From: an uncultured Chloroflexia bacterium
GTDB taxonomy: Bacteria > Chloroflexota > Anaerolineae > Anaerolineales > E44-bin32
Reading direction: 5' to 3'
DNA length: 64,000 nucleotides
Assembly: GCA_963797485.1 (NCBI GenBank)
Contig: CAWCPF010000003.1
Location: 199,957-263,956 of the forward strand
Shown: positions 2,823-62,577 of the stretch, piece by piece
Layout of the letters: each line of letters opens with the position of its first letter
How positions within the stretch are numbered: the first letter of the stretch is position 1
Made by a program: the position numbers and the translations under genes
The notes under the pieces: generated by a model
What the model saw: the letters and a program-made list of their open reading frames with translations, nothing else
The model's database searches: none
Told to the model about the DNA's origin: nothing

Positions 2823-2838
2823 TGTGACAGAATTCACA
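2823..2838. promoter_or_regulatory. CRP/FNR-type palindrome TGTGA-N6-TCACA (site 1 of 8)
   Basis: TTTGTGACAGAATTCACAAT read directly, 9 nt after the phoU stop. It lies ~80 nt upstream of the TGCTATAATCC -10 box that precedes the ATPase gene. Confidence 0.5.
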
Positions 2839-2913
2839 ATCCGAGTCGGGCTCGACCGGCTGGGCCGGAGGGCCCGATGTCATCGGCCCGTCAGATACCG
2901 CCGGCGAGCCGGA

Positions 2914-2924
2914 TGCTATAATCC
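2914..2924 (+). promoter_or_regulatory. extended -10 promoter element TGCTATAATCC (ATPase gene)
   Basis: TGcTATAAT, conspicuous in a GC-rich intergenic region, ~45 nt upstream of the TTG start at 2969. The same 11-mer recurs at 60339 (+) and 47027 (-). Confidence 0.55.
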
Positions 2925-2968
2925 GCCGCGATAATCTGAGGGCACCCCTGTCTTCTTCGAGGTGGGAC

Positions 2969-5812: not shown

Positions 5813-5872
5813 AGGCTCAAGCTGGCCGGCAAGCACGCGACACGGCATGTAAATCACGCTTGGATCAGCCGG

Positions 5873-8942: not shown

Positions 8943-8997
8943 GTTGAGCCTAGTACTTTCTTTAAGGTCTACTGGCGGATTTTTAAGGAGTCAGTTG

Positions 8998-9027
8998 TTG
9001 ACTCGTCGTTTTCGATGGTGCTAGTAT
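8998..9027 (+). promoter_or_regulatory. sigma-70-type promoter of the orphan RNA
   Basis: TTGACT (8998-9003), 18-nt spacer, extended -10 TGcTAGTAT (9019-9027). Confidence 0.6.
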
Positions 9028-9033
9028 GTTTCC

Positions 9034-9350
9034 ACTGAGAGGGGCCCCCTGAAGCCCAGAGACGATCTCAGGGAACGGTCGACGAAGACAAACTGAAGTT
9101 GGCGAGCGGTTCATCTCATGCAGAAGAACCGTGAGCTGGTGGAAAGGCCTTCGGGCCGGGGAAGCCAGCAAGCGAGCGGCGAGGGCCTTCGGGCACCGGC
9201 CGATTGGGAGCCAGCGTAGGCGGCTTTAGGTTCCTGGAACCTTAAGCAAGTAATCGACCTGAAACCGGGATCGGATGTAAGTTACTTGGGGTCTCTCTCA
9301 GCTCATTTAAGCTAAGTGGGGCCGCCACATGCTGGGCGGCCCCTTCTGTG
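9034..9350 (+). ncRNA. unclassified structured RNA (~300 nt) with its own promoter and terminator
   Basis: No sense ORF of 60 aa or more. A 14-bp closing helix pairs 9035-9048 with 9288-9301. Nested helices pair 9077-9082 with 9254-9259 and 9135-9139 with 9165-9169. There are UUCG-loop hairpins at 9146-9157 and ~9184-9194. A terminator hairpin pairs 9318-9326 with 9335-9343. No tmRNA, RNase P or SRP hallmark strings were seen. Confidence 0.55.
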
Positions 9351-9397
9351 TGCTTCTCTATCTTCATGCCGGATTGGCCAGAAACGCGTCCGGGTCG

Positions 9398-9612: not shown

Positions 9613-10184
9613 CTACTGCGGCAGGCGGGCGATGTACGGGCAGCTGGCGGTAGTGCCCTTGGTGTTGAAGCCCGTAGCCCACCAGGAAATCGTCGGGGGC
9701 CTCAAAGCCGACATAGGCCAGAGGAATGCGGATCAGACGTCGGTGGGGCCGGTCCAGCAGCGCGGCCACATGGATGGTAGGCCGGCTGGCGGGGAATCAG
9801 TGAGCCGATCAGATGATGCAGCGTCAAGCCGGTGTCGACAATGTCCTCGACCAGCAAAACCGGCCGACCGCGGAGATCGGCCTCCAGATCCTTGACGATT
9901 TGGACCCGAGCGGGTTCGCCATCCGGCGGCCCGAACCGGCTTAGGGCCATGGTGTCGGTTTCGACCGGGATCGACAGCTCCCGCAGCAGGTCCCCCAGAA
10001 ACAGGATCGCCCCGGGGAGCACGCCGACGATCAGGAGCGGCGCGCCGGCGTAGTCGGCCGAAATGTCCCCCGCCAGCCGGTGAATGGCGGCCTGAATCTG
10101 GTCCCGGTCGAAGACCACGGAACCCGAATCAAAATCCAACGGGCGCCCGTCGGCGCGGGTCGTAAGGTCAGAACTCTGAGGCAC
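9613..10184 (-). pseudogene. hpt: hypoxanthine phosphoribosyltransferase, interrupted by two frameshifts
   Basis: The N-terminal frame carries the PRPP loop VLLVEDIVDTGLTL. The middle frame carries IHVAALLDRPHRR...YVGFEAPDDFLVGYGL. The conserved end YRQLPYIARLPQ-stop is only reached in a third frame. Shifts lie near 9779 and 9638-9640 (GGG run). Confidence 0.85.
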
Positions 10185-10569
10185 CTAGCAAACCGGGGGC
10201 ACGATCCTGAAGTCCATACTTAATGAGCAGGCCGCGCATCTGACGCCGGTTGAGCAGACGGACTTCGACGCCGGGATACAGTTCGGTCAGACGGCGGAAC
10301 TTATGATGCTTGCGGGTTATCGAAGACTGCCGCAGGGTCGTGAGCTCGACATACAAATCGAAGGGCGGCAAGTAGAAATCGGGCGTCACAGCTTCCTTGA
10401 CCGCGCCCTGCGGGTCGTAGGCCAGCGGAAACGTTGTCGGCTCGTAGCACCAGGGGATTCCATAGTAGTCCAACAGGCGGGCGAACTCGGCCTCGATCGG
10501 GTGCGCGAAATCCTTGGGGGGGTTGGGGTTGGGAACGGGTTCCACGGTGGGTGGGGATGATACCCCCAC
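10168..10569 (-). CDS. conserved hypothetical protein (133 aa)
   Basis: Non-repetitive ORF with balanced composition. Its 3' end overlaps the hpt start by 17 nt, suggesting an operon. No family recognised with certainty. Confidence 0.55.
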   Translation of the reverse strand: MGVSSPPTVEPVPNPNPPKDFAHPIEAEFARLLDYYGIPWCYEPTTFPLAYDPQGAVKEAVTPDFYLPPFDLYVELTTLRQSSITRKHHKFRRLTELYPGVEVRLLNRRQMRGLLIKYGLQDRAPGLLGASEF

Positions 10570-10623
10570 GGGGACGGCCTGTCAAACCAGGCACCGCCAC
10601 ATCTGGGATAGCCCGATCCGACT

Positions 10624-10639
10624 TGTGAAGGACTTCACA
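10624..10639. promoter_or_regulatory. CRP/FNR-type palindrome TGTGA-N6-TCACA (site 2 of 8)
   Basis: CTTGTGAAGGACTTCACAAG, ~55 nt upstream of the start (10569, minus strand) of the 133-aa gene/hpt pair. Confidence 0.5.
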
Positions 10640-10690
10640 AGGTAATTGGGAGGTGCGGCGGCGCCATGGAGACGACCGGGCCGAAGCTGA

Positions 10691-15230: not shown

Positions 15231-15336
15231 AACCGGCTCAAGCCAGGACCTCGCTGCCACCGCACATGGAATTCAAGCCCCCGCGTGCGAGGTACTCTGA
15301 TCGGGATCGGTTTTCCTGGTCGTCCTCGGCTCGGCC

Positions 15337-16171
15337 ATGGCTTTCGGTTTGGGCCGAATGGACGTCTCCCCGGTCACACCCTGGATCATCCTGTGGGTTC
15401 TCCTGCCCCTGGTCTGCCTGCCTATGGCGGGCCTGGTGATCTACCGCCTCTACGGGCTGTGGACGGCTCGTTTTCGGCTCGATGGCGAGGGCTTCTACCT
15501 GTGGTGGGGGTTGAGTTTCGAGCAGATCCCGCTGGACCAGGTTGATGCGGTCCAGCCCGTCACACCCGAGTTTGCAGGCGTGGCCTTGGCGCCGGGTCTC
15601 TGGTGGCCCGGCTGCGCCGTGACCCATGCCCAGCTTGGCCAGGGCGCGCCGGCGGAGGTCTTTGCCGGAGGCGACCCCCGCTCGGGCGTGCTGGTGCGCA
15701 CCGTCAACAAGGCCTTCCTCGTCACGCCCGCCCAATCCGATAGGTTTGTGAATTCTTTCACAGAGGCCACTCGCCAGGGATCGCTGCGCCCCATCCCCGC
15801 CCAGTCGCATCGGCCCGACTTCCTGGTGGGAAGGGTATGGTCCGATCCCTGGGCTCGAGGCTCTGATGGTATTAGGGGCGGTCATCCCGCTCCTGCTGCT
15901 GGCCTTTGTCGGCTGGCGGGCGTCGATGTTGGTCGGGCCGGTGCCGTTTGGCTTTGACCAGTTCGGCAGCCCCGATCCGTTGGCGCCCCCGGGCCGGCTG
16001 CTGCTTCTGCCGTTGATGGCCGGGTTTGTCTGGCTGGCCGATGCCATGCTCGGGATATGGCTTTATCAGGCGCCGGACCGGCGCGGCCTGGCCTATACTG
16101 TGTGGCTGGCGGCTGTAATCAGTGGTGGGCTTCTGGCGGGAGCCGCTCTCCAATTGATATCCCAAGCTTGA
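15337..16171 (+). pseudogene. membrane protein (bPH-like N-terminal region), apparent +1 frameshift
   Basis: ORF 15337..15957 and the hydrophobic ORF 15866..16171 overlap in adjacent frames. The second frame is open from 15752. A join near 15850-15865 gives one continuous membrane protein. The alternative is two separate genes. Confidence 0.45.
15747..15762. promoter_or_regulatory. CRP/FNR-type palindrome TGTGA-N6-TCACA (site 3 of 8, intragenic)
   Basis: TTTGTGAATTCTTTCACAG inside the 15337 ORF, read as F-V-N-S-F-T. Confidence 0.4.
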
Positions 16172-16232
16172 CGGGGTTCTGTCCACCGTCGGCCGACGTT
16201 TTTCCACAAGCACCCGGCAGGTTATCCACAGG

Positions 16233-26202: not shown

Positions 26203-27231
26203 TTGCCAGCCCAGGTGGCGGTGGTCATGCCTTGTCACAACGCCGGCCAGACCGTCGATCAGGCAATTGAGTCGATTGTCACCGGATCGATGGGCGACTT
26301 CGAGATTATCGTCGTTGACGACGGGTCGACCGATGACACCGTCGCCAGGCTGCAGGCATGGGCGGGCCGGGATGCCCGGCTGCATCTCATCCAGCTGCCC
26401 AGGGTTGGCCTGGTGCGGGCCCTGAATGCCGGCGTGAGCGCGGCCACGGCGCCGCTGCTGGCACGGATGGACGCCGACGATATCGCCATGCCTACGCGTC
26501 TCGAGAAACAGCTCGCGCTTTTGAATGCCCATCCGGGCCTGGCGGTGGTGGGATCATGGGTGCGCCCTTTCCCGGAGGAAGACGTCCGGGAGGGGTTTCG
26601 GTTGTACGTGGACTGGCTCAACAGCCTGGTGACGCCGAACTCCATGGCGCGTGAGATCTTCGTGGAGAGCCCGCTGGCGCACCCGAGCGTGGTCATGCGC
26701 GCCGAGTGGATCAAACGCGTCGGCGGCTATCAGGACCACGGCTGGCCGGAGGACTATGACCTGTGGCTGCGGCTGTATCTCGAAGGGGCAGCCTTCGGGA
26801 AAGTGCCCGAGGTCCTGCTATTGTGGCGAGAACACCCGGCTCGGGCGACGCGCACCGACAGCCACTATTCGGTTGAGAACTTCCTGCGAGCCAAAGCCGC
26901 GTACCTGGCTCAAGGGCCGCTGGCCGGCTGCGACGGCGTGATCGTATGGGGGGCGGGTCAGATGGGCAAGCGCCTTTCGAAGCATCTGCTCAAGCACCAA
27001 GTTCCGCTGGCGGTCTTTATCGACATCGACCCAAAGAAGATCGGCCGGGAGCGGCGGGGACTTCCCGTCGAGCCGGTCGAGGCGCTCGAGCGCTGGTGGG
27101 GCTCCTTTGAGCACCCGGCTGTGCTGGCGGCGGTCGGCTCGCGCGGTGCGCGGGCCTTGATCCGCGAGCAGCTTAACGCGCGGCGGGCTGGTCGAAGGTC
27201 GGGACTGGTGGGCCGTGGCCTGACCAACTGA
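26203..27231 (+). CDS. family 2 glycosyltransferase with C-terminal Rossmann-like domain
   Basis: VVMPCHNAGQTVDQAIESI, VVDDGSTDDT and RMDADD, then VIVWGAGQMGKRL. The last ~15 codons may be affected by an indel near 27183; the alternative frame ends ..GLVEGRDWWAVA at 27223. Confidence 0.75.
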   Translation: MPAQVAVVMPCHNAGQTVDQAIESIVTGSMGDFEIIVVDDGSTDDTVARLQAWAGRDARLHLIQLPRVGLVRALNAGVSAATAPLLARMDADDIAMPTRLEKQLALLNAHPGLAVVGSWVRPFPEEDVREGFRLYVDWLNSLVTPNSMAREIFVESPLAHPSVVMRAEWIKRVGGYQDHGWPEDYDLWLRLYLEGAAFGKVPEVLLLWREHPARATRTDSHYSVENFLRAKAAYLAQGPLAGCDGVIVWGAGQMGKRLSKHLLKHQVPLAVFIDIDPKKIGRERRGLPVEPVEALERWWGSFEHPAVLAAVGSRGARALIREQLNARRAGRRSGLVGRGLTN

Positions 27232-27234
27232 GTT

Positions 27235-27250
27235 TGTGAAGGATTTCACA
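27235..27250. promoter_or_regulatory. CRP/FNR-type palindrome TGTGA-N6-TCACA (site 4 of 8)
   Basis: TTTGTGAAGGATTTCACAT in the 43-nt gap between two convergent stop codons (27231 and 27275). Confidence 0.4.
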
Positions 27251-27274
27251 TGAAAGCCGCGATGGCGGCGGGCA

Positions 27275-27883
27275 TCAAACCCGATCGAGATGAGCGGAGC
27301 GCCATGGGCGCGGGATAAAGCGCGGGACCTGCGCCTGGTAGCGCCGGTAGGGCTCGCCGAAGCTTCGAAGCAGTTTGCGCTCTTCGAACAGGCTGCCGAT
27401 GTAGAGATAGGCGGTCAGGCCGAGGTCCAGGGCCAGCACGCTGCTGGTCATCAGGGGCGTGAACCAGATGAACAGCAGGCCCCCGGTGTACAGCGGGTGG
27501 CGCATGTAGCGGTACAGGCCCGACGCCACGAGCTGGTCCCCTCCGGTGTCATCCACCAGCTGGCTCAGCCCGAGGAAGTCCATCGGGCCCGTCTGGAGCA
27601 GCCCGATCACGACCAGCCCGGCGCCCACGGCTTGCAGCGCCAGGCTCCCGAGCACCCAGGGCATCTCAATCCGGTACAAGGTCGTCCCCGGCGCCAGCGC
27701 GGGCACTGCCAACACCGGCAGCAGGGTGAGGCCCGCCAGCAGATTGAAGAACAGGCGATAGCCGCGCTGGGCGGTCTTTCCCCAGCGGCGGGTCGCCTGC
27801 TGCTTGGCCCACGTGCCGGCCAACAGACTGTGAAAGGCGCCGTAAGCGGCGACGGCGAACAGAGTGAGCGCAAAACCGGCCAT
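27275..27883 (-). CDS. isoprenylcysteine carboxyl methyltransferase / PEMT-family membrane methyltransferase
   Basis: 202 aa from ATG 27883. Polytopic, with GLYRYMRHPLYTGGLLF and EERKLLRSFGEPYRRY. The 398-aa track ORF upstream of 27883 is antisense to the DinB-like gene. Confidence 0.75.
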   Translation of the reverse strand: MAGFALTLFAVAAYGAFHSLLAGTWAKQQATRRWGKTAQRGYRLFFNLLAGLTLLPVLAVPALAPGTTLYRIEMPWVLGSLALQAVGAGLVVIGLLQTGPMDFLGLSQLVDDTGGDQLVASGLYRYMRHPLYTGGLLFIWFTPLMTSSVLALDLGLTAYLYIGSLFEERKLLRSFGEPYRRYQAQVPRFIPRPWRSAHLDRV

Positions 27884-36278: not shown

Positions 36279-37501
36279 TCAGTCGAGCCACTCGATGATG
36301 GTGGCTTCGCCCTGCCCCACGCCGACGCACAGGGTGGCCAGGCCGTAGAACGGGCGAGGCTGGTTGGGGGCACGCCGCCGCATTTCGTGGACCAGCGTGG
36401 TGAGAATCCGGGCCCCCGAGCATCCCAGGGGGTGGCCCAAGGCGATGGCGCCGCCGTTGACGTTGGTGATCTCGTGGCGCATGCCTAATTCACGCATGAC
36501 CGCCAGCGATTGCACGGCGAAGGCTTCGTTCAACTCAATGAGCCCAATGTCATCCAGAAGTCAAGCCGGCGCGCGCCAGGGCCTTACGGGTGGCCGGGAT
36601 GGGGCCCAGGCCCATCGTGCGCGGGGCGACGCCGGCGGCGGCCGAAGCCACCACCCGCGCCATCGGACGCACGCCGATGTCGTCGGCCCGTTCGGCGCTG
36701 AGGAGCACCAGGGCGGCCGCCCCGTCGTTGATCCCGGAGGAGTTGCCGGCCGTCACCGTGCCGCCGGAGCGGAAAGCAGGCCGAAGCTTGGCCAGCGCTT
36801 CCAGGGATGTATCGCGGCGCGGCCGTTCGTCGGTGTCGACCACAACCGCATCGCCCTTGCGTTGGGGAACGTGCACCGGGACGATCTCCTCGGCGAAGCG
36901 TCCCAGAGTCTATGGCGGCAACGGCGCGGCGGTGGCTTTCGAAGGCAAACGCGTCCTGGTCCTGGCGGCTGATGTCGCGTGTGAGCTCGTACACGTTTTC
37001 AGCAGTCTCGCCCATGGATTCGTTGCCGACCAACTCCTTGAGGCGCGGATTAGGGAAGCGCCACCCGAGCGTCGTGTCCCAGGCGGTCAAGTCGCCCCAC
37101 GGGTAGGCCGGCTCCGGTTTGGGGAGGGCGTAGGGTGCCCGGGACATGCTTTCGACGCCCCCGGCGACATAGGCTTGGCCCTCACCGGCCTTGATGGCTC
37201 GGTGGGCGGCGTTGACCGCCTGCAAGCCGGAGGCACACAGGCGGTTGAAAGTCACCGCCGCCACCTCGACCGGGAGGCCGGCCAGCAGGGCGGCCATGCG
37301 GGCCACGTTGCGGTTGTCCTCGCCGGCCTGATTGGCGCACCCGAGGTAAACTTCTTCCAGGATTGAGGCGTCCACGCCGGCCAAGCGCACAGCCTCAGCT
37401 ATCACCCGAGCGGCTAGATCATCCGGGCGAACAGCCGCCAGGGCCCCGCCATGGGCACCGATGGGGGTGCGGACGGCCGAGACGATCACGGCTTCGGGCA
37501 T
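36279..37501 (-). pseudogene. acetyl-CoA acetyltransferase (thiolase), two +1 frameshifts
   Basis: The N-terminal frame has [10 protein letters not shown] (active Cys). The middle frame has [17 protein letters not shown]...[17 protein letters not shown]. The C-terminal frame has NEAFAVQ...[17 protein letters not shown]...CVGVGQG. Shifts lie near 36901 and 36552-36558. Confidence 0.85.
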
Positions 37502-40967: not shown

Positions 40968-42077
40968 TTAAGCGCGGGGAGGGGCGGCGGCCTCGTGGTG
41001 CCACGGCTGCCGGGGGGTGCGCAAGTCGCGCAAGGAGCGGTCTGAGACCCAGGGCGCATACGGCGCCATCGTCAGACCGGCCAGGGCCAAGAGCGGGGTG
41101 TCGTAGTTGACGCGCCAACCATGGTAGTCCTGCCAGGCCTGGTCGAGATCGGCCTTAACCGGCACCCCCTGTTCGGACAGCTCACGACAGGCGGCGTCAA
41201 ACTCGGCGCGTGAAATGCTGATCGGGTCGGTCGGTTTGGGGTCGGCGTCGTAGCGGATCTCAAAGAAGTCGGCAATCCGGCGCAGGGCCAGGTAGCCCGA
41301 ACGGAGGCACAGATCTGCCTGGACGTCGCGGGGGATTTCCAGCGTCGAGGCGGCCAGGGCGGCTGCATCCAGTACGACGCCGGCGGCCGTGACCCACGAG
41401 CGATCGCCTTGCGGTGATCGAAAGAAGACCAGTGCCGAAAGCGAGGTGTGGGTCTCCTCGATTTCAGTGAACCAGTATTCCCAGTTGGCCCACAGATCGG
41501 TCAAGCGGTTGAGGCGCCCCAGGCGGTTGGCCCGGGCGATCAACGTAGTCGCCGCCGGCGGAGAGCCGGCCCGGATTTCGAGCATCGCCACGGCGGTCTC
41601 GCGCCGCGAGAAGGCCGTATAGATGGCCGGCAGATAGGCGATCAAGAGCGCGATCAGGCCCAGGCCGATGGTGGCCTCGGTGAAGGTCAGTATCGTGGCC
41701 CCAAGGCCGGTGGGGCTGGTCGAGCCCAGGGTGAGCAGCGACGAACCGCTCAGGCGAAAGGCCTCCCCCCAACTCAGCGGGCCCAAGGCCCAGTACATCG
41801 CCATGTAGCCCAACAGCACCAAGGTCACCCACACGACCGGCTGCGCCAGCAAGCCGAGCGGACCATACAGCGCCATCACCCGGTCGCGGTCCTCATAGGA
41901 TTGGCTGCGGTCGGCGCGCCAGCGGAAAGGAATATACAGGCCGCGCACGATCCAGCGCGTCAGGCGGACATTGGCGGCGCGCGGCAGGACGAAGGTCATC
42001 ACGGCGGCGCTTAAGGTCATCAGCACCAGATAGGCGCCTACGAGGAAAGCTGCCAGCCGTTCGATTGTGAAAATCGT
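40968..42077 (-). CDS. hypothetical membrane protein
   Basis: The ORF is open to 42218, but its first ~45 codons are Pro/Arg-rich and unlikely to be coding. GTG 42077 (..LVTIFTIERLAAFLVGAYLVL..) begins at the first TM segment. Soluble C-terminal half. No family recognised. Confidence 0.55.
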   Translation of the reverse strand, partial: TIFTIERLAAFLVGAYLVLMTLSAAVMTFVLPRAANVRLTRWIVRGLYIPFRWRADRSQSYEDRDRVMALYGPLGLLAQPVVWVTLVLLGYMAMYWALGPLSWGEAFRLSGSSLLTLGSTSPTGLGATILTFTEATIGLGLIALLIAYLPAIYTAFSRRETAVAMLEIRAGSPPAATTLIARANRLGRLNRLTDLWANWEYWFTEIEETHTSLSALVFFRSPQGDRSWVTAAGVVLDAAALAASTLEIPRDVQADLCLRSGYLALRRIADFFEIRYDADPKPTDPISISRAEFDAACRELSEQGVPVKADLDQAWQDYHGWRVNYDTPLLALAGLTMAPYAPWVSDRSLRDLRTPRQPWHHEAAAPPRA

Positions 42078-42081
42078 CACA
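42066..42081. promoter_or_regulatory. CRP/FNR-type palindrome TGTGA-N6-TCACA (site 5 of 8)
   Basis: ATTGTGAAAATCGTCACAAG, overlapping the proposed GTG start of the 40968 gene. Confidence 0.4.
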
Positions 42082-42164
42082 AGAACATCCCCGATTGAAC
42101 TCCGGCGAGCGCCATGGGAGCAGGCCCCTATGGTACTTGGCGGGGAAGGGCGCGGCAAGGGTTC

Positions 42165-42200: not shown

Positions 42201-42475
42201 GACCAACACAAGCACCATGGCGAGCGCGGAGACACACCATCAACTGCAGCCTCTCCCAGAGAGCCGGTCCAGGGTGAGAGCCGGCGAGGCAGGTTGGTGG
42301 ATCCCCTCCGCCGGTCCCGCAAACCGCGCGACCGCGCCGAGCCCGGAGGGACGGCCAGCGTGCCGCCGTAAGGGCCAGGGTCCGCCCGATACAGCGGTCT
42401 GAGGCCGGCAAGCCGGCGAATGCAGGTGGCACCACGAGCGCCCCCTCGTCCTGCGGAGGAGAGGGCGCTTTTGAT
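42201..42475 (+). promoter_or_regulatory. T-box riboswitch leader of serS
   Basis: Stem I-like AGAGAG (about 42258-42263) and GGUUGGUGG (42292-42300). T-box sequence GGUGGCACCACG (42425-42436). Terminator AGCGCCCCCUC...GAGGAGAGGGCGCU plus UUUU (42437-42472), 20 nt before serS. Confidence 0.7.
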
Positions 42476-42493: not shown

Positions 42494-43786
42494 ATGCTGG
42501 ACCTGCGCCTGATACGTGAGCAGCCCGAGGTGGTGAAAGCGGCCATGGCCAGGCTGCATGTCGACGCGCCGATCGAAGACATCCTGAGCCTGGACGAATC
42601 CCGCCGCCTGCTCCTGACCGAGCTGGAGGGTCTCCGACACGAGCGCAAGGTGACCTCCGAGCAGATCGGCCGCATGCAGGACAAGGCTGAGCGCCAGGCG
42701 CAGATCGAGGCCATGCGCGGGGTGAACGAACACATCGGAGAACTCGAAGCCCGGCTGCGCGAGATCGACCAGTCACTCGAGCAGCTCATGTACCAGGTGC
42801 CGAACCTGCCGCACGCCAGTGTGCCGGATGGCGAGGACGAGAGCCAGAACGCCGTCATCCGGCAGGAGGGCGAGCCGGCCACAGTCGACCAGCTTGGTTT
42901 TGAGCCCCGCCCGCATTGGGAGCTCGGCCCATCCCTTGGAATTCTCGATTTCGAGCGCGGAGTCAAGCTGGCCGGGAGCCGGTTTTACGTGCTGTATGGC
43001 GCCGGGGCGCGCCTCGAGCGGGCGCTGATCAGCTGGATGCTGGACACCCACACGCGGCAGCATGGCTACCTGGAGGTCTATCCGCCCTTCGTGGTCAAGG
43101 AGGCGGCCATGTGGGGCGCCGGGCAGCTTCCCAAATTCCGCGACAACATCTATCACGATGCCGAGGAGGACCTGTGGTGGGTGGGGACAGCCGAGATCCC
43201 TCTGACCAACCTGCACCGAGACGAAATCCTGGGCCTCGACGACCTGCCGCGCCACTATGTGGCCTACACCCCCTGCTTCCGGCGCGAGAAGTTCTCGGCC
43301 GGGCGAGATGTGCGCGGGATCAAGCGCGGCCACCAGTTCGACAAGGTCGAGATGTACAAATTCACCACGCCGGAGACGTCGTATGACGAGCTGGAGACTT
43401 TGCTGGACAACGCCGAAGACATCTGCCGGGCGCTGGAGATCCCCCATCGGGTCGTGGAAATGGTCACCGGCGACCTGGGGTTCGTGGCCGCCAAGAAATT
43501 CGACGTCGAGCTGTGGGCTCCCGGCTCAGCCGAATGGCTGGAGGTCAGCTCGTGCAGCAACTGCGAGGCCTTTCAGGCCCGGCGGGCGAACGTCCGCTAC
43601 CGGCCGGCCCCCGACGCCAAGCCGGAATTCGTGCACACCTTGAACGGCTCGGGCCTGGCACTGCCGCGGACGATGATCGCCGTCCTGGAGAACTTCCAGC
43701 AGGCGGACGGCAGCGTGCGGGTGCCGGATGTCCTGCAGCCCTGGATGGGGGGGATCAAGCTCATCGAACCCCAGGCGCTGCCTTGA
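42494..43786 (+). CDS. serS: serine--tRNA ligase
   Basis: 430 aa. N-terminal coiled-coil arm, class II motifs (..[11 protein letters not shown].., ..[11 protein letters not shown].., ..[13 protein letters not shown]..). Confidence 0.95.
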
Positions 43787-48476: not shown

Positions 48477-49983
48477 TCAGGCCAGGCCGTACAAACGGCC
48501 AAACTTGGCCTGCAGATAGCGTAGATAGGGCTCGGCGGTGAGATCCTGCCCCGTCACGCTTCTCAACAGATCCACGGATCCGAACTTGGCCCCGTGCCGA
48601 TGGATATGCTGGCGCAGCCAGCTCAGCAGCGGCTCAAACTCACCCCGGCCGATTTGGTCGTCCAGGTCCGGCATTTCGGAAGCAATCTTCTCCCAAATCT
48701 GGCACGCAATCAGGTTGCCCAGGGCGTAGGTGGGGAAGTAGCCGATGTATCCGCTCGACCAATGGATGTCCTGCAGCACGCCGAGGCGATCGTCCGGGGG
48801 CCGTATGCCCAGATAGGCCTCGTAAGCGTCGTTCCAGGCAAGGGGGAGATCGTCGATGGCCAGATCACCGGAGAGCAAGGCACGCTCGAGCTCGAAACGG
48901 ACCATGATGTGCAGGTTATAGGTGGCCTCGTCGGCCTCGACCCGAATCAGGGAGGGCTGGACCTTGTTGATGGCGCGGTAGAAAGCGTCGGCCTCCTCAT
49001 CCTGCAAGCTGCCGGGGAACGTCTGCCGCAGATCAGGGTAGAACCGGGTCCAAAAGGGCCGGCTCCGGCCCACCAGGTTTTCCCACAGGCGGGATTGGGA
49101 CTCGTGCATGCCAAGCGAGGCGCCGTCAGCCAGCGGTGTGCGGGCCAGGCTGGCTGGAAAGCCCTGTTCGTACATGCCATGCCCGGCTTCGTGCAGGGTG
49201 GCGAAGAGGCCGGGCGGCAGAAAATCCTCCTGGAAGCGAGTGGTGATGCGCACGTCTCCCGAGCCGAAGGAGGTCGTGAAAGGATGGCTCGAACTCATCC
49301 TGCCGCCCGCGCTCGAAATCGTATCCAAAGGCGCGGATCACCTTCTCGCCAAAGGCCCTTTGGCCCTCGACCGGGAAGTGACGGTGCATGACCGAATCGT
49401 CGATGATGGGCTGTTGGGCGATGGCCTTGACCAGGGCGGTTTGGGACGTTCGCAGCTCGGAGAAGACGGCCGCCACCTGCGAGGATTTCATGCCGCGCTC
49501 GTAGTCATCCAGCTGCGGGTCGTAGATGTGTTCGTAGGGTTCGAAAAAGCCGGCGTATTCGCGCCGGAGCTCAATCACCCGGGCGAGATCGGGTTTGAAA
49601 GCCGCGAAATCCGAGGCCTGCTTGGCGCCCATCCAGGCTTGCTGAGCCAGGGTGGTGACGCGCGCGAGTTCGGCCACGAAATCCGCCGGGATGCGCGACT
49701 GCTTCTCCAGATCGTAGCCGACGCGCCACACCAGGCGGGCGCTGTCCGAGTCGGGGTCCATGTCGGCGGCGGCCGAGCGGGCGGCCTCCAACGCGTCGGC
49801 CAGCTCCGGGCTCGTGTTTTTCTCGTGGGCCAGGCGCCTCAACGTGGCCACCTGGCTCGATCGCGCTTCAGCCCCGCCGCTTGGCATGTACGTCTGCTGG
49901 TCCCACTCCAGCAGCGCCGCCGCCTGGGAGAGGTCCACCACCTCGCCAATCAGGTCCTTGAGGGTGTCGATGGAATCAGGCAT
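48477..49983 (-). pseudogene. carboxypeptidase M32 (Taq-type), +1 frameshift
   Basis: The N-terminal frame ends ..[12 protein letters not shown]. The C-terminal frame continues [10 protein letters not shown]...[14 protein letters not shown] (HEXXH). The shift is at the doubled base 49292-49293. Confidence 0.85.
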
Positions 49984-50003: not shown

Positions 50004-50927
50004 TCAGGCGACGCGCCAGCGCAGCGATTTGGCCTGCAGGGCGGCCAGGACCTCGTCGGCGATGTCGATGGCGGCCCGGGCCTGGGCCTCGACCGTCTGC
50101 GCGCCCAGATGCGGCGTGGCAATCAGGTGGGGATGCTCGAGCAGCGGAGACGTGCCGGGCGGCTCGTGTTCAAAGACATCCAGCGCCGCTGCGGCGACCT
50201 GCCCGCTTTCCAGGGCCTGGAGCAGCGCGGCCTCGTCGACCACCCCGCCCCGGGCGGCGCACACCAGGCGCACGCCAGGCTGCATGCGCGCCATGGCGTC
50301 GACGCCAATCAAGCCGCGCGTGTCGTCGGTCAGGGGCACATGCAGGCTGATGTAGTCCGACGCCTCCAGCAGGGCTGCCTGGGTCACCGGGCGGGCGCCG
50401 CGGCGCTGGATCTCGTCGGCCGGGATGAGCGGATCATAGCCAATGACCGTCATGTCCATGGCCAGCGCCCGCTGGGCCACGGCGGCACCGATGCGCCCCA
50501 TGCCGAACACGCCCAGCGTTTTGCCAGCCAGCTCCGAGCCTTTGAAGGCTTTCTTATCCCAGCGGCCGGCGTGCATGCCGGCGTTGGCCTGTGGGATCTC
50601 GCGAGCCATGGCGAGCATCAAACCCAGGGTCAGCTCGGCGACAGCATTGGTCGCCGCCAGCGGCGCGTTGACCACTACCACGCCCAGGTCGCGCGCCGCG
50701 TCGAGATCGATGTTATCGACACCCACACCGGCCCGGCCGACGACTTTCAACCTCGGCGCGCCGCCCTGAAGGACCGCTCGGGTGACCTGCGTGGCGCTGC
50801 GGACGATCAATGCGTCGGCCTCACCCAGCGCGGAGAGCTCGGGGTCGTCCACGACCTCGGCTTCGGCGGCCAGGCGCTCCCGGCCGACGGCTTCCAATCC
50901 ATCGCTGATGACAATGCGCCAGTTCAT
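50004..50927 (-). CDS. D-isomer-specific 2-hydroxyacid dehydrogenase (phosphoglycerate dehydrogenase-like)
   Basis: ATG 50927 ([11 protein letters not shown]..). NAD motif [13 protein letters not shown], and a catalytic region with ..PHLGAQT. Confidence 0.8.
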
Positions 50928-50961: not shown

Positions 50962-51513
50962 TCATTGTACCTTGAGGCCCGGACGAGCTGCGCCCACAAG
51001 GCGCCGCGGAGAGCTTGTGATGAAATTCACAAATCGGATTTGGACCCCGAGGGGGCTGTGCAGGGGACGAGCATAGGCGCGTTCGAGCTCGGTCACGGCG
51101 GCCAGACAGGCCTCGTCTTCTGGATTGGGCGAGTAGGTCGTGCTGAACCAGGCGTCGAGGATGTCCCGGGCGACCGGCTCCGAGGTGGTCCGAAGCGAAA
51201 GGCACAGGAGGTTGGGGTTGTTCCAGCGCCGGGCCAGGCTGGCCGTCGTCGCGTCGGCGCACAAGGCGGCCCGGATGCCCGGGACCTTGTTGGCCGCCAG
51301 GCTCACGCCGGTGCCGGTCCAGCAGAACAAGACCCCTTCATCGGCCTCGCCTCGCACCACAGCTTCGGCCACGTTGCGCGCCACCTGGGGCCACGTGCCG
51401 GGCGCGCCGGCCAATGGCCCATACACGCTCACGCGATGACCGCGCCGCTCCAGGTCTTCGATGACCGCCTGGGTGAGATGGGTCTTCTCATCCGAGCCAA
51501 CCGCCAGGTTCAT
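50962..51513 (-). CDS. rpiB: ribose-5-phosphate isomerase B / LacAB-family sugar-phosphate isomerase
   Basis: MNLAVGSDE..., GVLFCWTGTGVSLAANKVPGIRAA. The ~30-aa C-terminal tail beyond the usual family length includes palindrome site 6 and may not be genuine coding sequence. Confidence 0.75.
   Translation of the reverse strand: MNLAVGSDEKTHLTQAVIEDLERRGHRVSVYGPLAGAPGTWPQVARNVAEAVVRGEADEGVLFCWTGTGVSLAANKVPGIRAALCADATTASLARRWNNPNLLCLSLRTTSEPVARDILDAWFSTTYSPNPEDEACLAAVTELERAYARPLHSPLGVQIRFVNFITSSPRRLVGAARPGLKVQ
51016..51031. promoter_or_regulatory. CRP/FNR-type palindrome TGTGA-N6-TCACA (site 6 of 8)
   Basis: CTTGTGATGAAATTCACAAA, ~90-105 nt upstream of the dehydrogenase start (50927, minus strand), within the rpiB 3' tail. 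Confidence 0.5.
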
Positions 51514-53540: not shown

Positions 53541-53630
53541 CCCTGGCTGAAAAGGTCAACCGACGATCGGCGGCGGACAGCTGAGACAGTCGATTGTGGG
53601 ATAATGGACGCCTCAACCCGGGAGGTCCCA

Positions 53631-54916
53631 TTGGAGTTCAACCGGATCTGCGTCCTTGGGCTGGGCTACATTGGCCTGCCGACGGCCAGCACGTTTGCGA
53701 ACCAAGGCGTCAAAGTCTTGGGGGTGGATGTCCAACCGGACATCGTGCGCCGGCTCCGGCAGGGCCAGCCGCACATTCAGGAGCCGGGCTTGCGCGCCCT
53801 GGTGCAGGCGGCGCTGGCTTCGGGGAATCTGGACCTCGGCGAGCGCCCGGCCGGGGCGGATGCCTTCATCATCGCGGTTCCCACCCCGTTCTTAGAGGAC
53901 AAAACCGCTGATCTGAGCTATGTCCGGGCGGCCGCCGAATCGATTGCCCCCGAGCTTCGGGCCGGTAATCTGGTCGTACTTGAATCAACCTGTCCCCCGC
54001 GAACGACCGCCGATGTCGTGGGGCCGCTGCTGGCCAAGTCCGGGTTGACGCCCGGGAAGGACTTCTACCTGGCTTACACGCCGGAACGGGTGCTGCCCGG
54101 CCAGATCCTGCGCGAGCTGGTCGAGAACCCGCGGATCATCGGCGGGATCGACCCGGCGTCGGCGGAGGCCGGGCGCGATTTGTATCGCCTGTTCGTCCAG
54201 GGCGATATCCTGCTCACGGATGCCACCACCGCCGAGCTGGTCAAACTCATGGAAAACACCTACCGCGACGTCAACATCGCCGCCGCCAACGAGTTCTCTC
54301 GCCTGGCGGAGCGGTTGGGGGTGGACGTGTGGCAGGCTATCGATCTCGCCAGCCGCCATCCCCGGGTCAAGATCCTGCGCCCCGGACCCGGTGTGGGCGG
54401 ACATTGCATCAGCATCGACCCCTGGTTTTTGGTGGAGGCCGCCCCGGATCTCACGCCCCTGATTTCAGGCCGCCCGGCGGGTCAACGACGACCAGCCGGG
54501 CCACGTCACCGAGATCATCCGCCAGGCCCTCGGCGGCCGGCTGGAAGGCGCAAAGATTGCCGCGCTTGGCCTGGCTTACAAGGCTGACGTCGACGACCTG
54601 CGCCAGAGCCCGGCTGTGGAGGTGGTTCGCCAACTGGCGGCCGCCGGCGCACAGGTTCGGACTTACGAACCTATGGCGCCGCAGGCTGTCATTGAAGGGG
54701 CACAGGCGGCAGAATCGCTGGAGGCGGTTTTGGATGGGGCTGAGGCTGTTGTGCTGCTCGTGGATCACCATGCCTGCGTAGCGCTGGACCCCGGTCTGGC
54801 GGCGGGTCGTATGGCCGGGCGCATCGCCGTCGACACGCGGCGGGGTCTGGGATCGGGACGGCTGGACGCAAGCCGGATTCGACCTGTTCATCCTGGGTGT
54901 CGGTCGGCATGCCTGA
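53631..54916 (+). pseudogene. wecC: UDP-N-acetyl-D-mannosamine dehydrogenase (WecC-type), two +1 frameshifts
   Basis: ICVLGLGYIGLPTA, then the catalytic region ..GPGVGGHCISIDPWF. The frame changes at TTT 54463-54465 (..LIQAARRVNDDQP..) and near 54839-54845 (..DTRGVWDRDGWTQAGFDLFILGVGRHA-stop 54916). Start proposed at TTG 53631 after GGGAGG; the track start is 53604. Confidence 0.8.
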
Positions 54917-56052: not shown

Positions 56053-56080
56053 GGCCGGCCCCCAGGCCTGACGAGGACCG

Positions 56081-57113: not shown

Positions 57114-57120
57114 GCGTCGC

Positions 57121-58000: not shown

Positions 58001-59097
58001 GCGCCGACGCGCCGAGGTTCCCCGGCCGATTAGCTATCCAGCAGCGGGTCCTGCCCGCCTACCGGGCGGCGTTTTTCGAGGCGCTGGGTGAGATGTGCGC
58101 CGGCGGGCTGACCGTCTTGGCGGGAGGTCCCCGGCCGGGAGAAGCCATTTCAGCGGCGGATCGACTGCGCGAGGTCGAGCGGATCGAGTTGAGCAATCGA
58201 CACTGGCTTTCGGGCGCCCTGTACCTATGCCAGCAGCCGGGCCTGCTTCCCTGGCTGCGCGATCATCCCCCGGACGCGCTGATCCTGGAGGCCAACCCTC
58301 GCTATCCGAGCAACTGGCGCGCCCGGGCCTGGGCGCGGAATCGGGGCCTGCCCGTGATTGGCTGGGGTTTGGGGACGCCCACCCAGGGCGGGCTTGGGAG
58401 ATGGGCCCGGCGGCGCTTCCTGGCTGGGTTCGACGCGCTGATTGCCTACAGCACGCACGGCGCCGAGGCCTACCGCCAGATGGGTATGGCGCCCGAGCGA
58501 GTCTTCGTGGCCGTCAACGCTGTCAGCCCGGCGCCGGCGCGTCTGCCGGCCCGACCCCCGAAAGTCAGCGGGCCGCTGCGGGTCCTATACGTGGGCCGCT
58601 TGCAGCCCCGCAAGCGGCTGGATGTGCTCATCCGGGCCTGCGCCTCGCTCCTGCCGCCGGCGGAGCTGGTCATTGCCGGGGACGGCCCTGCGCGCAAGCA
58701 GCTCGAAGCGCAGGCGGCGCAGGCCTCGGCGTGGGTCAGCTTCCGGGGCCACCTCAGCGGCCAGGCCCTCGAAGACTTATACGGCTGGGCGGAGGTGTTT
58801 GCGCTTCCCGGCACCGGCGGCCTGGCTGTGCAGCAGGCGATGGCTCATGGTCTGCCGGTGATCGTCGGCGAAGGCGACGGCACGGCCCCGGACCTGGTGC
58901 GGCCGGGCAACGGCTGGCGGGTCGAGCCGGGCGACGAGGCGGGTTTGGCGGCAATTCTCAACCAGGCGCAGGCCGACCGGCCGCGCCTGGCCGCCATGGG
59001 CGACGCCTCGGCGCGAATCGTGACCGAAGAGATCAATATCCAGACCATGGCGGCCACATTTGTGAAGGCCGTCACAAGCTTGGCCGGGAGGGCCTGA
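57997..59097 (+). CDS. GT4-family glycosyltransferase
   Basis: ATG 57997 (ATGA overlap with the upstream stop). C-terminal ..FALPGTGGLAVQQAMAHGLPVIVGEGDGTAPDLV.. The track ORF start 57805 overlaps the previous gene. Confidence 0.8.
   Translation: MSADAPRFPGRLAIQQRVLPAYRAAFFEALGEMCAGGLTVLAGGPRPGEAISAADRLREVERIELSNRHWLSGALYLCQQPGLLPWLRDHPPDALILEANPRYPSNWRARAWARNRGLPVIGWGLGTPTQGGLGRWARRRFLAGFDALIAYSTHGAEAYRQMGMAPERVFVAVNAVSPAPARLPARPPKVSGPLRVLYVGRLQPRKRLDVLIRACASLLPPAELVIAGDGPARKQLEAQAAQASAWVSFRGHLSGQALEDLYGWAEVFALPGTGGLAVQQAMAHGLPVIVGEGDGTAPDLVRPGNGWRVEPGDEAGLAAILNQAQADRPRLAAMGDASARIVTEEINIQTMAATFVKAVTSLAGRA
59061..59076. promoter_or_regulatory. CRP/FNR-type palindrome TGTGA-N6-TCACA (site 7 of 8, intragenic)
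   Basis: TTTGTGAAGGCCGTCACAAG in the last 12 codons of the 57997 gene (read F-V-K-A-V-T), 23 nt upstream of the next GT start. Confidence 0.4.
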
Positions 59098-59098
59098 G

Positions 59099-60310
59099 GT
59101 GCGCATCCTGTATGTGGCCGATGGGAGAAGTCCGATCAGCCGGAGTTGGATGGCGCATTTCATCCAGGCGGGCGACGACGTCCATTTGGCTTCGACCTTT
59201 GAGTGCGAGCCCGTGGACGGTTTGGCCTCGTATCGGTTTGTGCCTGTCGGGCTGAGCCGCCGGCAAAGGACAGGCAGGCAAGCCCGGGCCGGCGGGCGTG
59301 GGCGGCGGCCATGGGGCGGGGTGAGGTTTCGGACCTGGGCTCGCGACTGGCTGGGTCCGTTGACGGTCGGCGCGGCGGCGCGCCGGTTGAGCCAGGTCCT
59401 GGACGAGGTGCAGCCTGAACTGGTGCATGCCATGCGCATCCCCTTCGAGGGCATTCTGGCGGCGGCGGCCGGGCCGCAGGCGCCGCTGCTGATTTCGTCG
59501 TGGGGCAATGACTTCACCCTGCATGCCGGTGCCGGTCCCCTGCTGTCCCGGCAAACACGCCAGACGCTGCAGCGCGCCGACGGATTGCATACCGATTGCC
59601 AGCGGGACCTGCGCCTGGCGTGGCGCTGGGGCTTCCCTCGCAACCGGCTGCAGGTGGTGCTTCCCGGCAATGGGGGCGTGCCGCGCCAGATTTTCCATCC
59701 TGGCGACTCGTTGTCGGACCAGGATGGATCGCCCCTGGCGCAGATCCTGGGTCATATTCCGCCCGCCGCGCCGGTGGTGGTCAACCCGCGTGGGCTTCGA
59801 GCCTATGTGCGCCAGGACACGTTCTTTGCCTCGATTCCCATCATCCTGGAACGCCATCCCCAATGCATGTTTGTGTGTCCGGCCATGGCGGATGAGCCCG
59901 AGGCCGCCGAATGGGTGAGCCGGATGGGGATCGCGGAGCATGTCCGTCTGCTGCCTCGCTTGTCGCCCGAGGGAATGGCGGCGGTGTTCAGGCGGGCGCA
60001 AGTGGCCGTCTCACCCAGCCAGCATGACGGGACACCCAACACCCTGCTCGAGGCCATGGCCTGTGGCTGCTTCCCCGTGGCCGGCGATCTGGAATCGGTG
60101 CGCGAATGGATCGAGCCTGGTGAAAACGGCCTGCTGGTTGACGCGTCGGACCCCAGGGCTCTGGCCCGCGCCACGGCCGATGCGCTGGACGACGCTGGAT
60201 TGCGCGAACGAGCTGCTCACCGGAACCAGGCTCTGGTGGCTGGCCGCGCGGACCGGATCCAGGTTATGAAGGCGGCACAGGCCTTCTACCGCCAATTGGC
60301 CTCAGCCTAG
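59099..60310 (+). CDS. GT4-family glycosyltransferase
   Basis: GTG start 2 nt after the upstream stop. 403 aa. ..SPSQHDGTPNTLLEAMACGCFPVAGDLESVREWI.. Confidence 0.8.
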   Translation: MRILYVADGRSPISRSWMAHFIQAGDDVHLASTFECEPVDGLASYRFVPVGLSRRQRTGRQARAGGRGRRPWGGVRFRTWARDWLGPLTVGAAARRLSQVLDEVQPELVHAMRIPFEGILAAAAGPQAPLLISSWGNDFTLHAGAGPLLSRQTRQTLQRADGLHTDCQRDLRLAWRWGFPRNRLQVVLPGNGGVPRQIFHPGDSLSDQDGSPLAQILGHIPPAAPVVVNPRGLRAYVRQDTFFASIPIILERHPQCMFVCPAMADEPEAAEWVSRMGIAEHVRLLPRLSPEGMAAVFRRAQVAVSPSQHDGTPNTLLEAMACGCFPVAGDLESVREWIEPGENGLLVDASDPRALARATADALDDAGLRERAAHRNQALVAGRADRIQVMKAAQAFYRQLASA

Positions 60311-60338
60311 CCGCTCATCCTGGCCGAAAGGGCCCCGA

Positions 60339-60349
60339 TGCTATAATCC
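60339..60349 (+). promoter_or_regulatory. extended -10 promoter element TGCTATAATCC (oxidoreductase gene)
   Basis: Identical 11-mer to 2914 and 47027; the shared block with 2914 is GATGCTATAATCCG. It lies ~60 nt upstream of ATG 60410. Confidence 0.55.
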
Positions 60350-60409
60350 GAACGCCCGGGCTTGCGCCGCTGGCGTATGGGTGCCCAGGCCGCCACTCGG
60401 ATCCGGCAG

Positions 60410-62577
60410 ATGAAACAGCTTATCCAGGATATGCGTTCAGGCGAAACCCACCTTGTCGACGTGCCCGTGCCTCAGCCTGGGCCCGGCGCCGCGTTGGTCC
60501 GGACGGCCGCCTCGGTGGTTTCCGCGGGCACCGAGCGGGCCACCACCAGCTTTGGGGAGAAGAGCCTGCTGGGTAAGGCCCGCTCACGGCCGGACCTCGT
60601 CAGTCAACTGGTCGACAAGGCACGGCAGGAGGGTCCGCTGGCTGCCCTTGAGACCGTGCGCACCCGGCTGGGACAGCCCATGACGCTGGGCTACAGCTCG
60701 TCGGGAACGGTGGTGGCCGTCGGACCCGGGTTGACCGAGTTTCACCCTGGTGACCGCGTGGTTTGCGCCGGAGGCGGCCATGCCGTCCATGCCGAGTATG
60801 CGCAAGTGCCAAGGCACCTGTTGGCGCATCTGCCGGACAACGTCAACTTCGAATCCGGCGCGTTTGCGACCCTTGGCGCCATCGCACTGCACGGCTTCAG
60901 ACTGTGCGGGGTTCAAGTGGGCGAGCAAGTGGCTGTGATCGGAATGGGGCTCCTGGGCCAGCTGGCCCTGGCCATCATCCAGGCATCCGGGGCGCGCGCC
61001 CTTGGGGTCGACCTGGCGCCCGAGCGAGTGGCGCTGGGGCGGGAACAGGGATTTGAGGCCGTCGTCCGGGCGGAAGCTGAATCGGCCGGTTTGGCTTTCA
61101 CACGAGGCGCCGGCTTTGACGCCGTGCTGATCTGCGCCGACACGACCGACGATGATCCGGTCGAACTGGCCGGGGAGCTGGCCCGGGACCGGGCGCATGT
61201 GGCCGTCATCGGCGCTGTCGGGATGAACCTGCCGCGGCGCCTGTACTACGCAAAGGAACTCCAGCTCGTGGTGTCGCGGTCCTACGGGCCCGGCCGCTAC
61301 GATCCGTCCTACGAAGACGCCGGCCACGACTACCCCGTTGGCTATGTGCGCTGGACGGAAGCCCGCAATCTTGAAGCCTTTGTGGCGCTCTTGGCCGGCG
61401 GCCTCGTCGACGTCACCCCCCTCATCAGCCATCGCATCCCCATTGACCAGGCTGCCGACGCCTACCGAGTGATTCGAGACCGCGAGTCCAGGTCACTGGG
61501 GGTCGTCTTGACCTACCCGGAGGCCGGAGTCCCCAGCCGATATGCCCGGCCGGCGGATCGAGTTGAAATCGCCTGCCGCCACCCACGCCGGCGGTCCGGC
61601 TCGGCGTGCTGGGCGCGGGTAATTTCGCCACCTCGACCGTTTTCCCAATCCTCGGCCGGCTCAAAGGCGTCGAAAAGGTCGGGCTGGCCTCGGCGGGCGG
61701 GCTGCGTGGGGCCGAAGCCGGACGGCGTTACGGTTTTGCGTACGCCACCAGCGACGAGCATGAGGTCTTCAACGATCCGAATATCAACACCGTCGCCATC
61801 CTGACCCGCCATGATCTGCATGCGCAGCAGGCGGTCGAGGGGCTGTCGGCCGGCAAGCACGTGCTGTGTGAGAAGCCGCCGGCGCTCACCCAGGCCGAGT
61901 TGAAAGAACTGCACGCGGCGCTTCAAACGGCTCACACACTGTACAGCGTCGGCTACAACCGGCGTTTCGCGCCCTTTGTCAAGGAGTTGAAAGCCCACTT
62001 CGACCCGGCCGGCGAGCCGCTGGCCTGTTTAATCCGGGTCAATGCCGGCTGGATCCCGGAAGACCACTGGGTGCAGGACCCGGAAGAGGGCGGCGGACGG
62101 CTGTTGGGCGAGGCCTGCCATTTCGTGGATTTGATGCTGGCCATCACCGGATCGCTGCCCGCCGAAGTCTGGGCCGGTGGGCTTCCCGATGCGGGCCGTT
62201 ACCGAGGCGACAATTTTGGACTGCAGGTTCGATTCGAAAACGGATCGCTTGGGACGCTGATCTACGTTGCCAACGGGGACCGCGGGGCCGGGAAGGAGCG
62301 CATCGAGGTCTTCGGCGGGGGCCGCTCCGGCGTGCTTGACGACTTCCGGACCTTGAAGCTGTTTGCAGGCAACACGCGCAAGTCTCGCCGGGCATGGCTG
62401 CGCCAGGACAAGGGACACCGCGCCCTGTGGGAGCAGTTTGTGAATTCTGTCACAAACCATGGCCAGCCGCCAATCCCTTACGAGCAAATCCTGGCCACGT
62501 CCATGACCACCTTTGCCGCCCTCGAATTGCTCCAGACTGGCGAGCCGGTGACCGTTCACAGCCTGCCCTTGGAGTGA
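60410..62577 (+). pseudogene. bi-domain oxidoreductase (Zn-ADH/MDR domain fused to Gfo/Idh/MocA domain), frameshifted
   Basis: The N-terminal part is an MDR-type dehydrogenase (..GYSSSGTVVAVG.., VAVIGMGLLGQLA). After a frame change near 61570-61600 the sequence reads VRLGVLGAGNFA...EKP (Gfo/Idh/MocA Rossmann). ATG 60410 is preferred to the track start 60362. Confidence 0.75.
62439..62454. promoter_or_regulatory. CRP/FNR-type palindrome TGTGA-N6-TCACA (site 8 of 8, intragenic)
   Basis: TTTGTGAATTCTGTCACAAA inside the oxidoreductase gene (read F-V-N-S-V-T), ~125 nt upstream of the heparinase-like gene start. Confidence 0.4.

Follow-up and report, generated by a model that had tools for sequence, protein, structure and literature searches.

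The redox regulator Rex is known to control a few dozen redox and fermentation genes. It is a repressor that senses NADH/NAD+, with representatives in Streptomyces coelicolor, Staphylococcus aureus, Bacillus, Thermus and Thermotoga. In S. aureus its 18-bp operator is TTGTGAAW4TTCACAA (PMC2883068), and PMC6391272, citing Ravcheev 2012, gives the overall consensus as TTGTGAANNNNTTCACAA. Eight palindromes with the identical 18-bp consensus are found in a 64,000-nt stretch of DNA from an uncultured Chloroflexia bacterium of the order Anaerolineales (contig CAWCPF010000003.1; the whole stretch is called the window below). All eight contain a perfect TGTGA-N6-TCACA core. The protein that binds them is most likely Rex, which would then have an unusually large set of sites in this clade; our confidence in this identification, drawn from sequence comparison, is about even.

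The Rex operator of S. aureus has been characterised by mutation. Mismatches are common at positions 1 and 7, and positions 4-5 are critical. An A/T-rich spacer is required, and the length of the spacer matters. S. aureus COL contains 16 perfect core sites upstream of genes and 54 candidates if up to three mismatches are allowed. Among the strong targets is ddh, of the D-2-hydroxyacid dehydrogenase family (all PMC2883068).

Three other groups of known sequences resemble the window sites. The 5+6+5 geometry of the core is common to CRP-, GlxR- and Vfr-type sites and the sites of NtcA, and the site repertoire of such regulators is possibly also very large and partly intragenic, as PMC3898017 suggests. 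The sites of parS/ParB, Noc, matS/MatP and SlmA are short, perfect, all-or-none palindromes, which are scattered, tolerated in genes and conserved across species. The DNA-uptake sequences (DUS/USS), REP and HIP1 are clade-specific exact words which are over-represented, also in coding DNA, and fairly evenly distributed.

Perfect TGTGA-N6-TCACA was found by exact pattern search at 2823, 10624, 15747, 27235, 42066, 51016, 59061 and 62439 of the window, the same eight positions as in the original prediction, an earlier reading of this stretch. In 100 dinucleotide-preserving shuffles of the window, the mean count is 0.03 and the maximum is 1, and the earlier hand estimate of about 0.02 by chance was thus sound. 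Allowing one mismatch in the window adds no site, with 0.86 matches in total expected by chance. T stands directly 5' of TGTGA at all eight sites, and six of them extend to the full TTGTGA-N6-TCACAA. The G+C content of the window is 62-69%.

The geometry is strict. The two pentamers occur in the window only in the inverted arrangement with a gap of exactly 6 nt; other gaps from 0 to 20 nt, and the everted and direct arrangements, have zero occurrences. Solitary half-sites are not enriched in the window. The words TTGTGAA/TTCACAA are seen 11 times against 3.6 expected, and this number matches the 11 of the 16 palindrome half-sites which have this form. TGTGA words overall are seen 65 times against 81 expected. 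Because half-sites alone are not enriched, the functional unit is considered to be the whole dyad, as for a rigid homodimer on double-stranded DNA. No sequence outside the 18 bp is common to the flanks of the sites. The word ATCCGA is present near four window sites; it was rejected as a second motif, as it is not kept in the orthologues.

The density is about one site per 8-10 kb. Inter-site distances range from 3.4 to 14.8 kb and are more even than random in simulations (coefficient of variation 0.45, P about 0.02), although this is a post hoc test on seven intervals. The GC skew is monotonic across the window, with no sign of an origin or terminus domain.

For comparison, syntenic DNA was collected from four sister species, giving about 195 kb for the clade in total. 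Species A is represented by L001, L114 and L104 (54 kb contiguous), species B by L106 to L110, species C by L002 and L113 (40 kb), and species D by L117 to L119. The assignment of the window to an uncultured Anaerolineales lineage is supported by SerS and DnaK. The nearest species representatives are metagenome-assembled genomes (MAGs) of the Microflora-Danica type, with SerS 85% and 83% identical and DnaK 85-87% identical. Sister assemblies are CAWDZQ01 (MFD05684.bin.1.112), CAVSID01 (MFD02416.bin.2.77) and ERZ25039500 contig_7897; CAYSDB01 and CAVPZJ01 belong to relatives in which no site was seen. A metagenome scan with the P-type ATPase returned relatives of at most 69% identity, and 0.9 Mb of this DNA was used as background.

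Each of the eight window sites has a perfect orthologue in at least one sister species. Between the window and species A-C, 11 of 13 orthologous comparisons are perfect. Over these 13 comparisons, the flanks are about 40% identical and the spacer 53%, against 97-98% for the pentamers, 100% for the outer T and 85% for the outer A. All copies found in the relatives' loci are orthologous to window sites, and no site missing from the window was found there. The sites are restricted to the clade: 20 perfect sites are present in its 195 kb, against 2 in about 1.25 Mb of other fetched DNA. The syntenic loci of L111, L112 (81% identical DnaK) and L017 contain no site even with one mismatch allowed. 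The sites have accumulated stepwise within the clade.

Sites 3, 7 and 8, and also site 5 if it is coding, are all read as xTT GTG Axx xxx xTC ACA and translated to F/L-V-x-x-F/V-T. Across species they keep ACA, which accounts for 7.8% of Thr codons, and TTT, which accounts for 26% of Phe codons, and their spacer codons change between species. Site 3 is absent in L117 (species D) and in the more distant L111, and the peptide differs in both. It therefore arose within the clade and was then held, and its gain involved a change of the bPH_5 protein sequence. The best reading is that purifying selection acts on the DNA of the sites itself. The eight palindromes are firmly established as selected, clade-specific sites, putatively high-affinity dyads for a DNA-binding dimer. 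The strong over-representation, which the original prediction had pointed out, is supported, as are the assignment to a dimeric DNA-binding protein and the promoter-proximal position of most copies.

The conserved sequence reaches beyond the core. The symmetrised half-site, based on 21 sites of the window and its relatives (42 half-sites), is t-T-TGTGA-A. TGTGA is present in all 42 half-sites, the outer T in 83% and the inner A in 67%. This corresponds to the 18-bp footprint TTGTGAA-N4-TTCACAA, or tTGTGAa-N4-tTCACAa if the less constant bases are written in lower case. The central N4 is 56-60% A+T, compared with 35% A+T for the genome.

None of the eight window sites departs from the Rex consensus at more than one of its 14 specified positions; 0 such sites are expected. 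Mismatches are seen only at operator positions 1/18 and 7/12, that is, at the outermost or innermost base of a half-site. The window contains 1, 7, 0, 1, 4, 38 and 240 sites with 0 to 6 mismatches to this consensus, against 0, 0, 0.07, 0.56, 5.5, 37 and 206 expected from a second-order Markov model. The histogram is bimodal: the eight near-perfect sites stand apart, and the counts at 2-6 mismatches are at chance level. The three features of the S. aureus operator, tolerance at positions 1 and 7 only, an A/T-rich centre and a fixed spacer, are all matched by the window sites and are counted for Rex. The original prediction had called the sites CRP/FNR-type; this label is not supported as it stood, since the conserved footprint includes the outer T and the inner A of the Rex operator. 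No relevant report of the motif in Chloroflexi or Anaerolineae came up in a literature search. The positions and contexts of the sites, and of the promoter elements near three of them, are listed in Table 1.

Table 1. Palindromic sites and conserved promoter elements of the window, with the state of each site in sister species
Feature	Position	Strand	Sequence	Context	Sister species
Site 1	2822..2839	.	TTGTGACAGAATTCACAA	9 nt past phoU stop; centre about -98.5 from inferred P-type ATPase transcription start	perfect at L104:284 and L106:290, with differing spacers
-10 element (extended), P-type ATPase gene	2917..2922	+	TGcTATAAT	invariant block GATGCTATAATCC in three-species alignment	
Promoter, 125/133-aa ORF and hpt operon	10557..10585	-	TTGACA-17-TATCAT	11/12 match; invariant in three-species alignment	
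Site 2	10623..10640	.	TTGTGAAGGACTTCACAA	only 14/14 match to Rex consensus; 52 nt past DUF1684 stop; centre -81.5 from inferred start of minus-strand small-ORF/hpt operon	perfect at L106:7912 and L117:5509; decayed to 2 mismatches at L104:7897 (species A)
Site 3	15746..15763	.	TTGTGAATTCTTTCACAG	mid-gene, in frame (F-V-N-S-F-T) in bPH_5 membrane-protein gene	perfect at L104:14112, L106:14124 and L110:4885, with three different spacers
Site 4	27234..27251	.	TTGTGAAGGATTTCACAT	4 nt past GT2 stop; between convergent GT2 (forward) and PEMT (reverse)	perfect at L114:13137 (species A), 22 nt past GT2 stop and convergent with multicopper-oxidase gene
Site 5	42065..42082	.	TTGTGAAAATCGTCACAA	5' end of minus-strand membrane-protein gene (40968-), divergent from serS	perfect at L001:9546 and L002:9547; deleted in L017
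-10 element, D-2-hydroxyacid dehydrogenase gene	50964..50969	-	TACAAT	invariant block ATTGTACCTTG	
Site 6	51015..51032	.	TTGTGATGAAATTCACAA	between rpiB and D-2-hydroxyacid dehydrogenase gene, both minus strand; centre -66.5 from inferred start	perfect at L002:18799; one mismatch at L001:19053 (species A)
Site 7	59060..59077	.	TTGTGAAGGCCGTCACAA	in frame (F-V-K-A-V-T), last 12 codons of GT1 gene; centre about 30 nt upstream of next GT1 start	perfect at L113:7464, same place in orthologous gene
Site 8	62438..62455	.	TTGTGAATTCTGTCACAA	in frame (F-V-N-S-V-T), C-terminal part of ADH/GFO-IDH-MocA oxidoreductase gene; about 125 nt upstream of heparinase-like gene start	perfect at L113:10889

Six of the eight sites are either on a start codon or no more than about 150 nt upstream of one. 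Of the other two, one is between convergent genes and the other is mid-gene. Phylogenetic footprinting reveals conserved sigma-70-type promoters downstream of sites 1, 2 and 6, and the transcription starts used for the distances were placed from these promoter elements. The distance from the centre of site 1 to TGcTATAAT is -98.5, -100.5 and -99.5 in three species. The -81.5 of site 2 is kept in two species, and site 6 is at the same distance to the conserved TACAAT in three species. The distance of site 5 to the serS promoter is not conserved (-127.5, -142.5 and -143.5). In three species the site 5 motif has its GTG in frame, and the membrane-protein gene may start at this codon. Sites 7 and 8, which precede the start of a following gene, belong to the polysaccharide operon.

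Four sites are 4-52 nt past a stop codon, and a fifth is within the last 12 codons of a gene. In a genome as compact as this one, a position shortly past a stop codon is also one some 100 nt ahead of the next start, and the two descriptions are inseparable. The convergent context of site 4 is kept in the window and in species A despite a different right-hand neighbour. The gene placement in the original prediction was essentially right. The serA-like D-2-hydroxyacid dehydrogenase gene was correctly put downstream of site 6, which separates it from rpiB, but it starts at an ATG near 50925, not at 50999. The placement of site 2 at the 133-aa gene/hpt pair also stands, with the change that the 133-aa open reading frame (ORF) probably represents a gene of 125 aa with almost no leader; in L107/L108 the gene call of 125 aa begins about 5 nt after the inferred start.

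Candidates for the binding protein were searched in the same DNA. In the window, neither phmmer searches with the CRP of E. coli and of M. tuberculosis nor Pfam scans covering about 60 ORFs detected a CRP/FNR gene, as had been stated earlier. The window and the 195 kb of clade DNA were also searched for Rex (PF06971 plus PF02629), with approximate B. subtilis and Thermus Rex sequences as phmmer queries, and no rex gene was detected. A Rex-like match in a GT2 protein was rejected, as it belongs to a Rossmann domain of the NeuD/PglD type. The gene of this protein, at 26203-27231 (+), encodes a C-terminal Rossmann domain with weak CoA_binding, Rex and NeuD matches, and it is conserved in species A.

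The sole CRP/FNR-family gene in the clade loci is L114:14946-15689 of species A, about 1.8 kb from the site 4 orthologue. It belongs to a 2.5-kb block (L114:13230-15689) of a multicopper oxidase, a DUF1858 protein and the CRP/FNR regulator, which is located between the site 4 orthologue and PEMT. The block is absent from the window, where it would correspond to about 27251-27275. In CRP-DNA structures, an Arg-Glu pair of CRP reads the GTG of the half-site. The regulator of species A has TLYTVSR aligned to SRETVGR of CRP, with Leu-Tyr in place of this pair, and is for this reason a poor candidate.

It is the match of the 18-bp footprint TTGTGAA-N4-TTCACAA to the Rex operator that makes a Rex mechanism the most likely one. 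We infer Rex as the binder, repression as its action and NADH as its signal. Rex, or a protein of the same specificity, would occupy the sites at a low NADH/NAD+ ratio and would be released from them when NADH rises. The expression of the neighbouring genes would thereby be tied to the redox state; these are the P-type ATPase gene, the hpt operon, the genes for D-2-hydroxyacid dehydrogenase and the membrane protein, and polysaccharide genes. The set of sites in this genus-level clade of Anaerolineales would have expanded far past the known Rex regulons. The D-2-hydroxyacid dehydrogenase and ADH/GFO oxidoreductase neighbours fit NAD(H)-linked Rex targets.

Several observations weigh against Rex. 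Most neighbours (the ATPase, the hpt operon, the bPH_5 gene and the glycosyltransferases) are not classic redox or fermentation genes, and the search of the window and clade DNA returned no rex gene. The sites are upstream of the core promoters and not over them: none overlaps a -35 or -10 element, and -66.5, -81.5 and about -99 are odd positions for a repressor. One site lies between convergent genes and one mid-gene, and selection at such non-promoter contexts is unusual for Rex. The core TGTGA-N6-TCACA is common to CRP-type sites. One site per 8-10 kb is also unusual for Rex, as is the absence of weaker sites. The S. aureus genome is 2.8 Mb, and the density in the window is about 20-fold above that of the S. 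aureus Rex regulon and lacks its tail of weaker sites.

The same density implies either a very large regulon or a genome-wide role, as the original prediction had reasoned. A very large regulon, activated or repressed, could belong to a CRP-family global regulator recognising TGTGA-N6-TCACA, which is considered unlikely. The core is identical to the CRP consensus, and the distances of -66.5, -81.5 and about -99 are closer to the placement of an upstream activator than to that of a repressor, but the three distances do not share a helical register. The sites of a CRP-family factor can be very numerous and can also lie inside genes; for NtcA, a chromatin immunoprecipitation paper (PMC3898017) has the words "exceptionally wide distribution of DNA binding sites" in its title. 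The window sites differ from CRP-, GlxR- and Vfr-type sites in their flanking and inner base preferences, which are those of Rex, and in that every core is perfect. CRP regulons consist mostly of imperfect sites, and a set with no degenerate tail and not one core with exactly one mismatch would be unusual for them. The E. coli CRP consensus is AAATGTGATCTAGATCACATTT; the conserved flanking T and inner A of the window sites are unlike it and correspond to the Rex extension. The CRP/FNR gene near the site 4 orthologue of species A could be taken as a link to CRP, but besides its altered recognition sequence it is missing at the syntenic position of the window, where the sites are all kept. These facts indicate that TGTGA-N6-TCACA should not be taken as CRP by default.

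A genome-wide role apart from promoters is a tentative possibility. The sites might anchor a nucleoid or insulator protein with sequence specificity, perhaps a protein like Rex or CRP that was recruited to this role. Such a protein could stop read-through where transcription units end, or it could organise the chromosome, in the way that parS, Noc-binding and matS sites work. The sites are perfect or absent, and they occupy all contexts, including the conserved convergent region and the mid-gene site made by a protein change. The positions at or just past stop codons, the even spacing and the stepwise accumulation in the clade are also consistent with such anchors, and canonical terminator-like hairpins in the window are at chance level. 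It can be speculated, with the same reserve, that one perfect operator copy per 8-10 kb forms a genome-wide lattice, not an ordinary regulon, which anchors a redox-sensing or other dimeric protein as an insulator, roadblock or nucleoid organiser. The copies of this lattice might then be fixed at orthologous positions whatever the context, including in frame at an amino-acid cost. On the other side, six of the eight sites fit an ordinary regulatory position in a compact genome, the spacing test is weak, and many ends of transcription units have no site. The sequence is unlike the parS consensus and differs also from the Noc, matS and SlmA sites; no cognate protein was found in the DNA searched and no candidate is known, and most window copies are promoter-proximal. 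The word is clade-specific, perfect and over-represented in coding and non-coding DNA with fairly even spacing, so that a repeat-type or self-propagating sequence has to be considered, such as a REP/MITE-like element, a DNA-uptake sequence or a target of restriction-modification or methylation. This is very improbable. The flanks are dissimilar beyond the 18 bp, and even those of orthologous sites agree at only about 40% of positions. Three copies lie in frame within coding sequence, and the relatives' copies are all orthologous, with none private to one species. In contrast to DUS/USS, REP and HIP1, the unit is a bipartite dyad with a free spacer, and its copies are stable and not dispersed. 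The lack of enrichment of half-sites argues against a single-word uptake signal, and targets of restriction-modification are normally avoided, not conserved site by site. A role at the RNA level was rejected, since no Rfam family covers any site and the hairpin stems have no compensatory variation; relatives do not keep the larger stem that surrounds site 2 (z = -3.8). Readings as a repeat element, an uptake sequence, a restriction-modification target or an RNA structure are essentially excluded.

If Rex is the binder, it might have risen to a global regulator comparable in scale with CRP, in a group of Chloroflexota that is uncultured and abundant in the environment. Should the sites be anchors instead, a classical operator might have been recruited for a chromosome-wide function. 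Both would be new. If the density of the window holds genome-wide, several hundred copies would be present per genome.

One of the two perfect cores outside the clade is seen on an unrelated metagenome contig with 55% G+C. Here, TTGTGAAAATTATCACAA is located at L079:9064-9079, at the start of a type-II NADH dehydrogenase gene. This context looks like an ordinary Rex-type one; ndh is a Rex target elsewhere.

Some further features were observed near the sites. Three species share a second conserved element between site 1 and the ATPase -10 element, GTCATC-N5-GTCAG (2885-2905, +, in the window), which is a possible operator for a different regulator. The 125/133-aa protein encoded upstream of hpt (10168-10569, -) is conserved and has no Pfam or NCBIfam match. 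It contains a D...E-x-T/K-like motif (PDFYLPPFDLYVELT), which is reminiscent of PD-(D/E)xK nucleases. In species A, where the GT2 and multicopper-oxidase genes converge, a 12-bp perfect G+C-rich hairpin (L114:13191-13217) is located between them, at a distance of 39 nt from the palindrome. It probably acts as a bidirectional terminator, and the window has no counterpart of it. The rpiB-like ORF at 50962-51513 (-) of the window reads through the site at 51016, and its end falls within the -10 element of the following gene; its stop comes 10-12 nt ahead of the site 6 orthologue in two sister species. The read-through is either an assembly error or a real C-terminal extension.

Several genes of the window are split by frameshifts: the thiolase gene at 36279-37501 (-), which is in three ORFs, the bPH_5 gene at 15301-16207 (+), the M32 carboxypeptidase gene at 48477-49983 (-), the UDP-glucose dehydrogenase gene at 53604-54587 (+) and likewise the fused ADH/GFO oxidoreductase gene at 60362-62577 (+). 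This points to indel errors of a long-read MAG assembly and not to pseudogenes. A divergent T-box leader precedes serS (42494-43786) at 42238-42453 (+), and its TTGAGC/TATAAT promoter is conserved. The Rfam matches to RF00230 stay under the gathering score, with 26 and 19 bits (E = 6.5e-4 and 0.044), and the leader is strongly conserved in four species.

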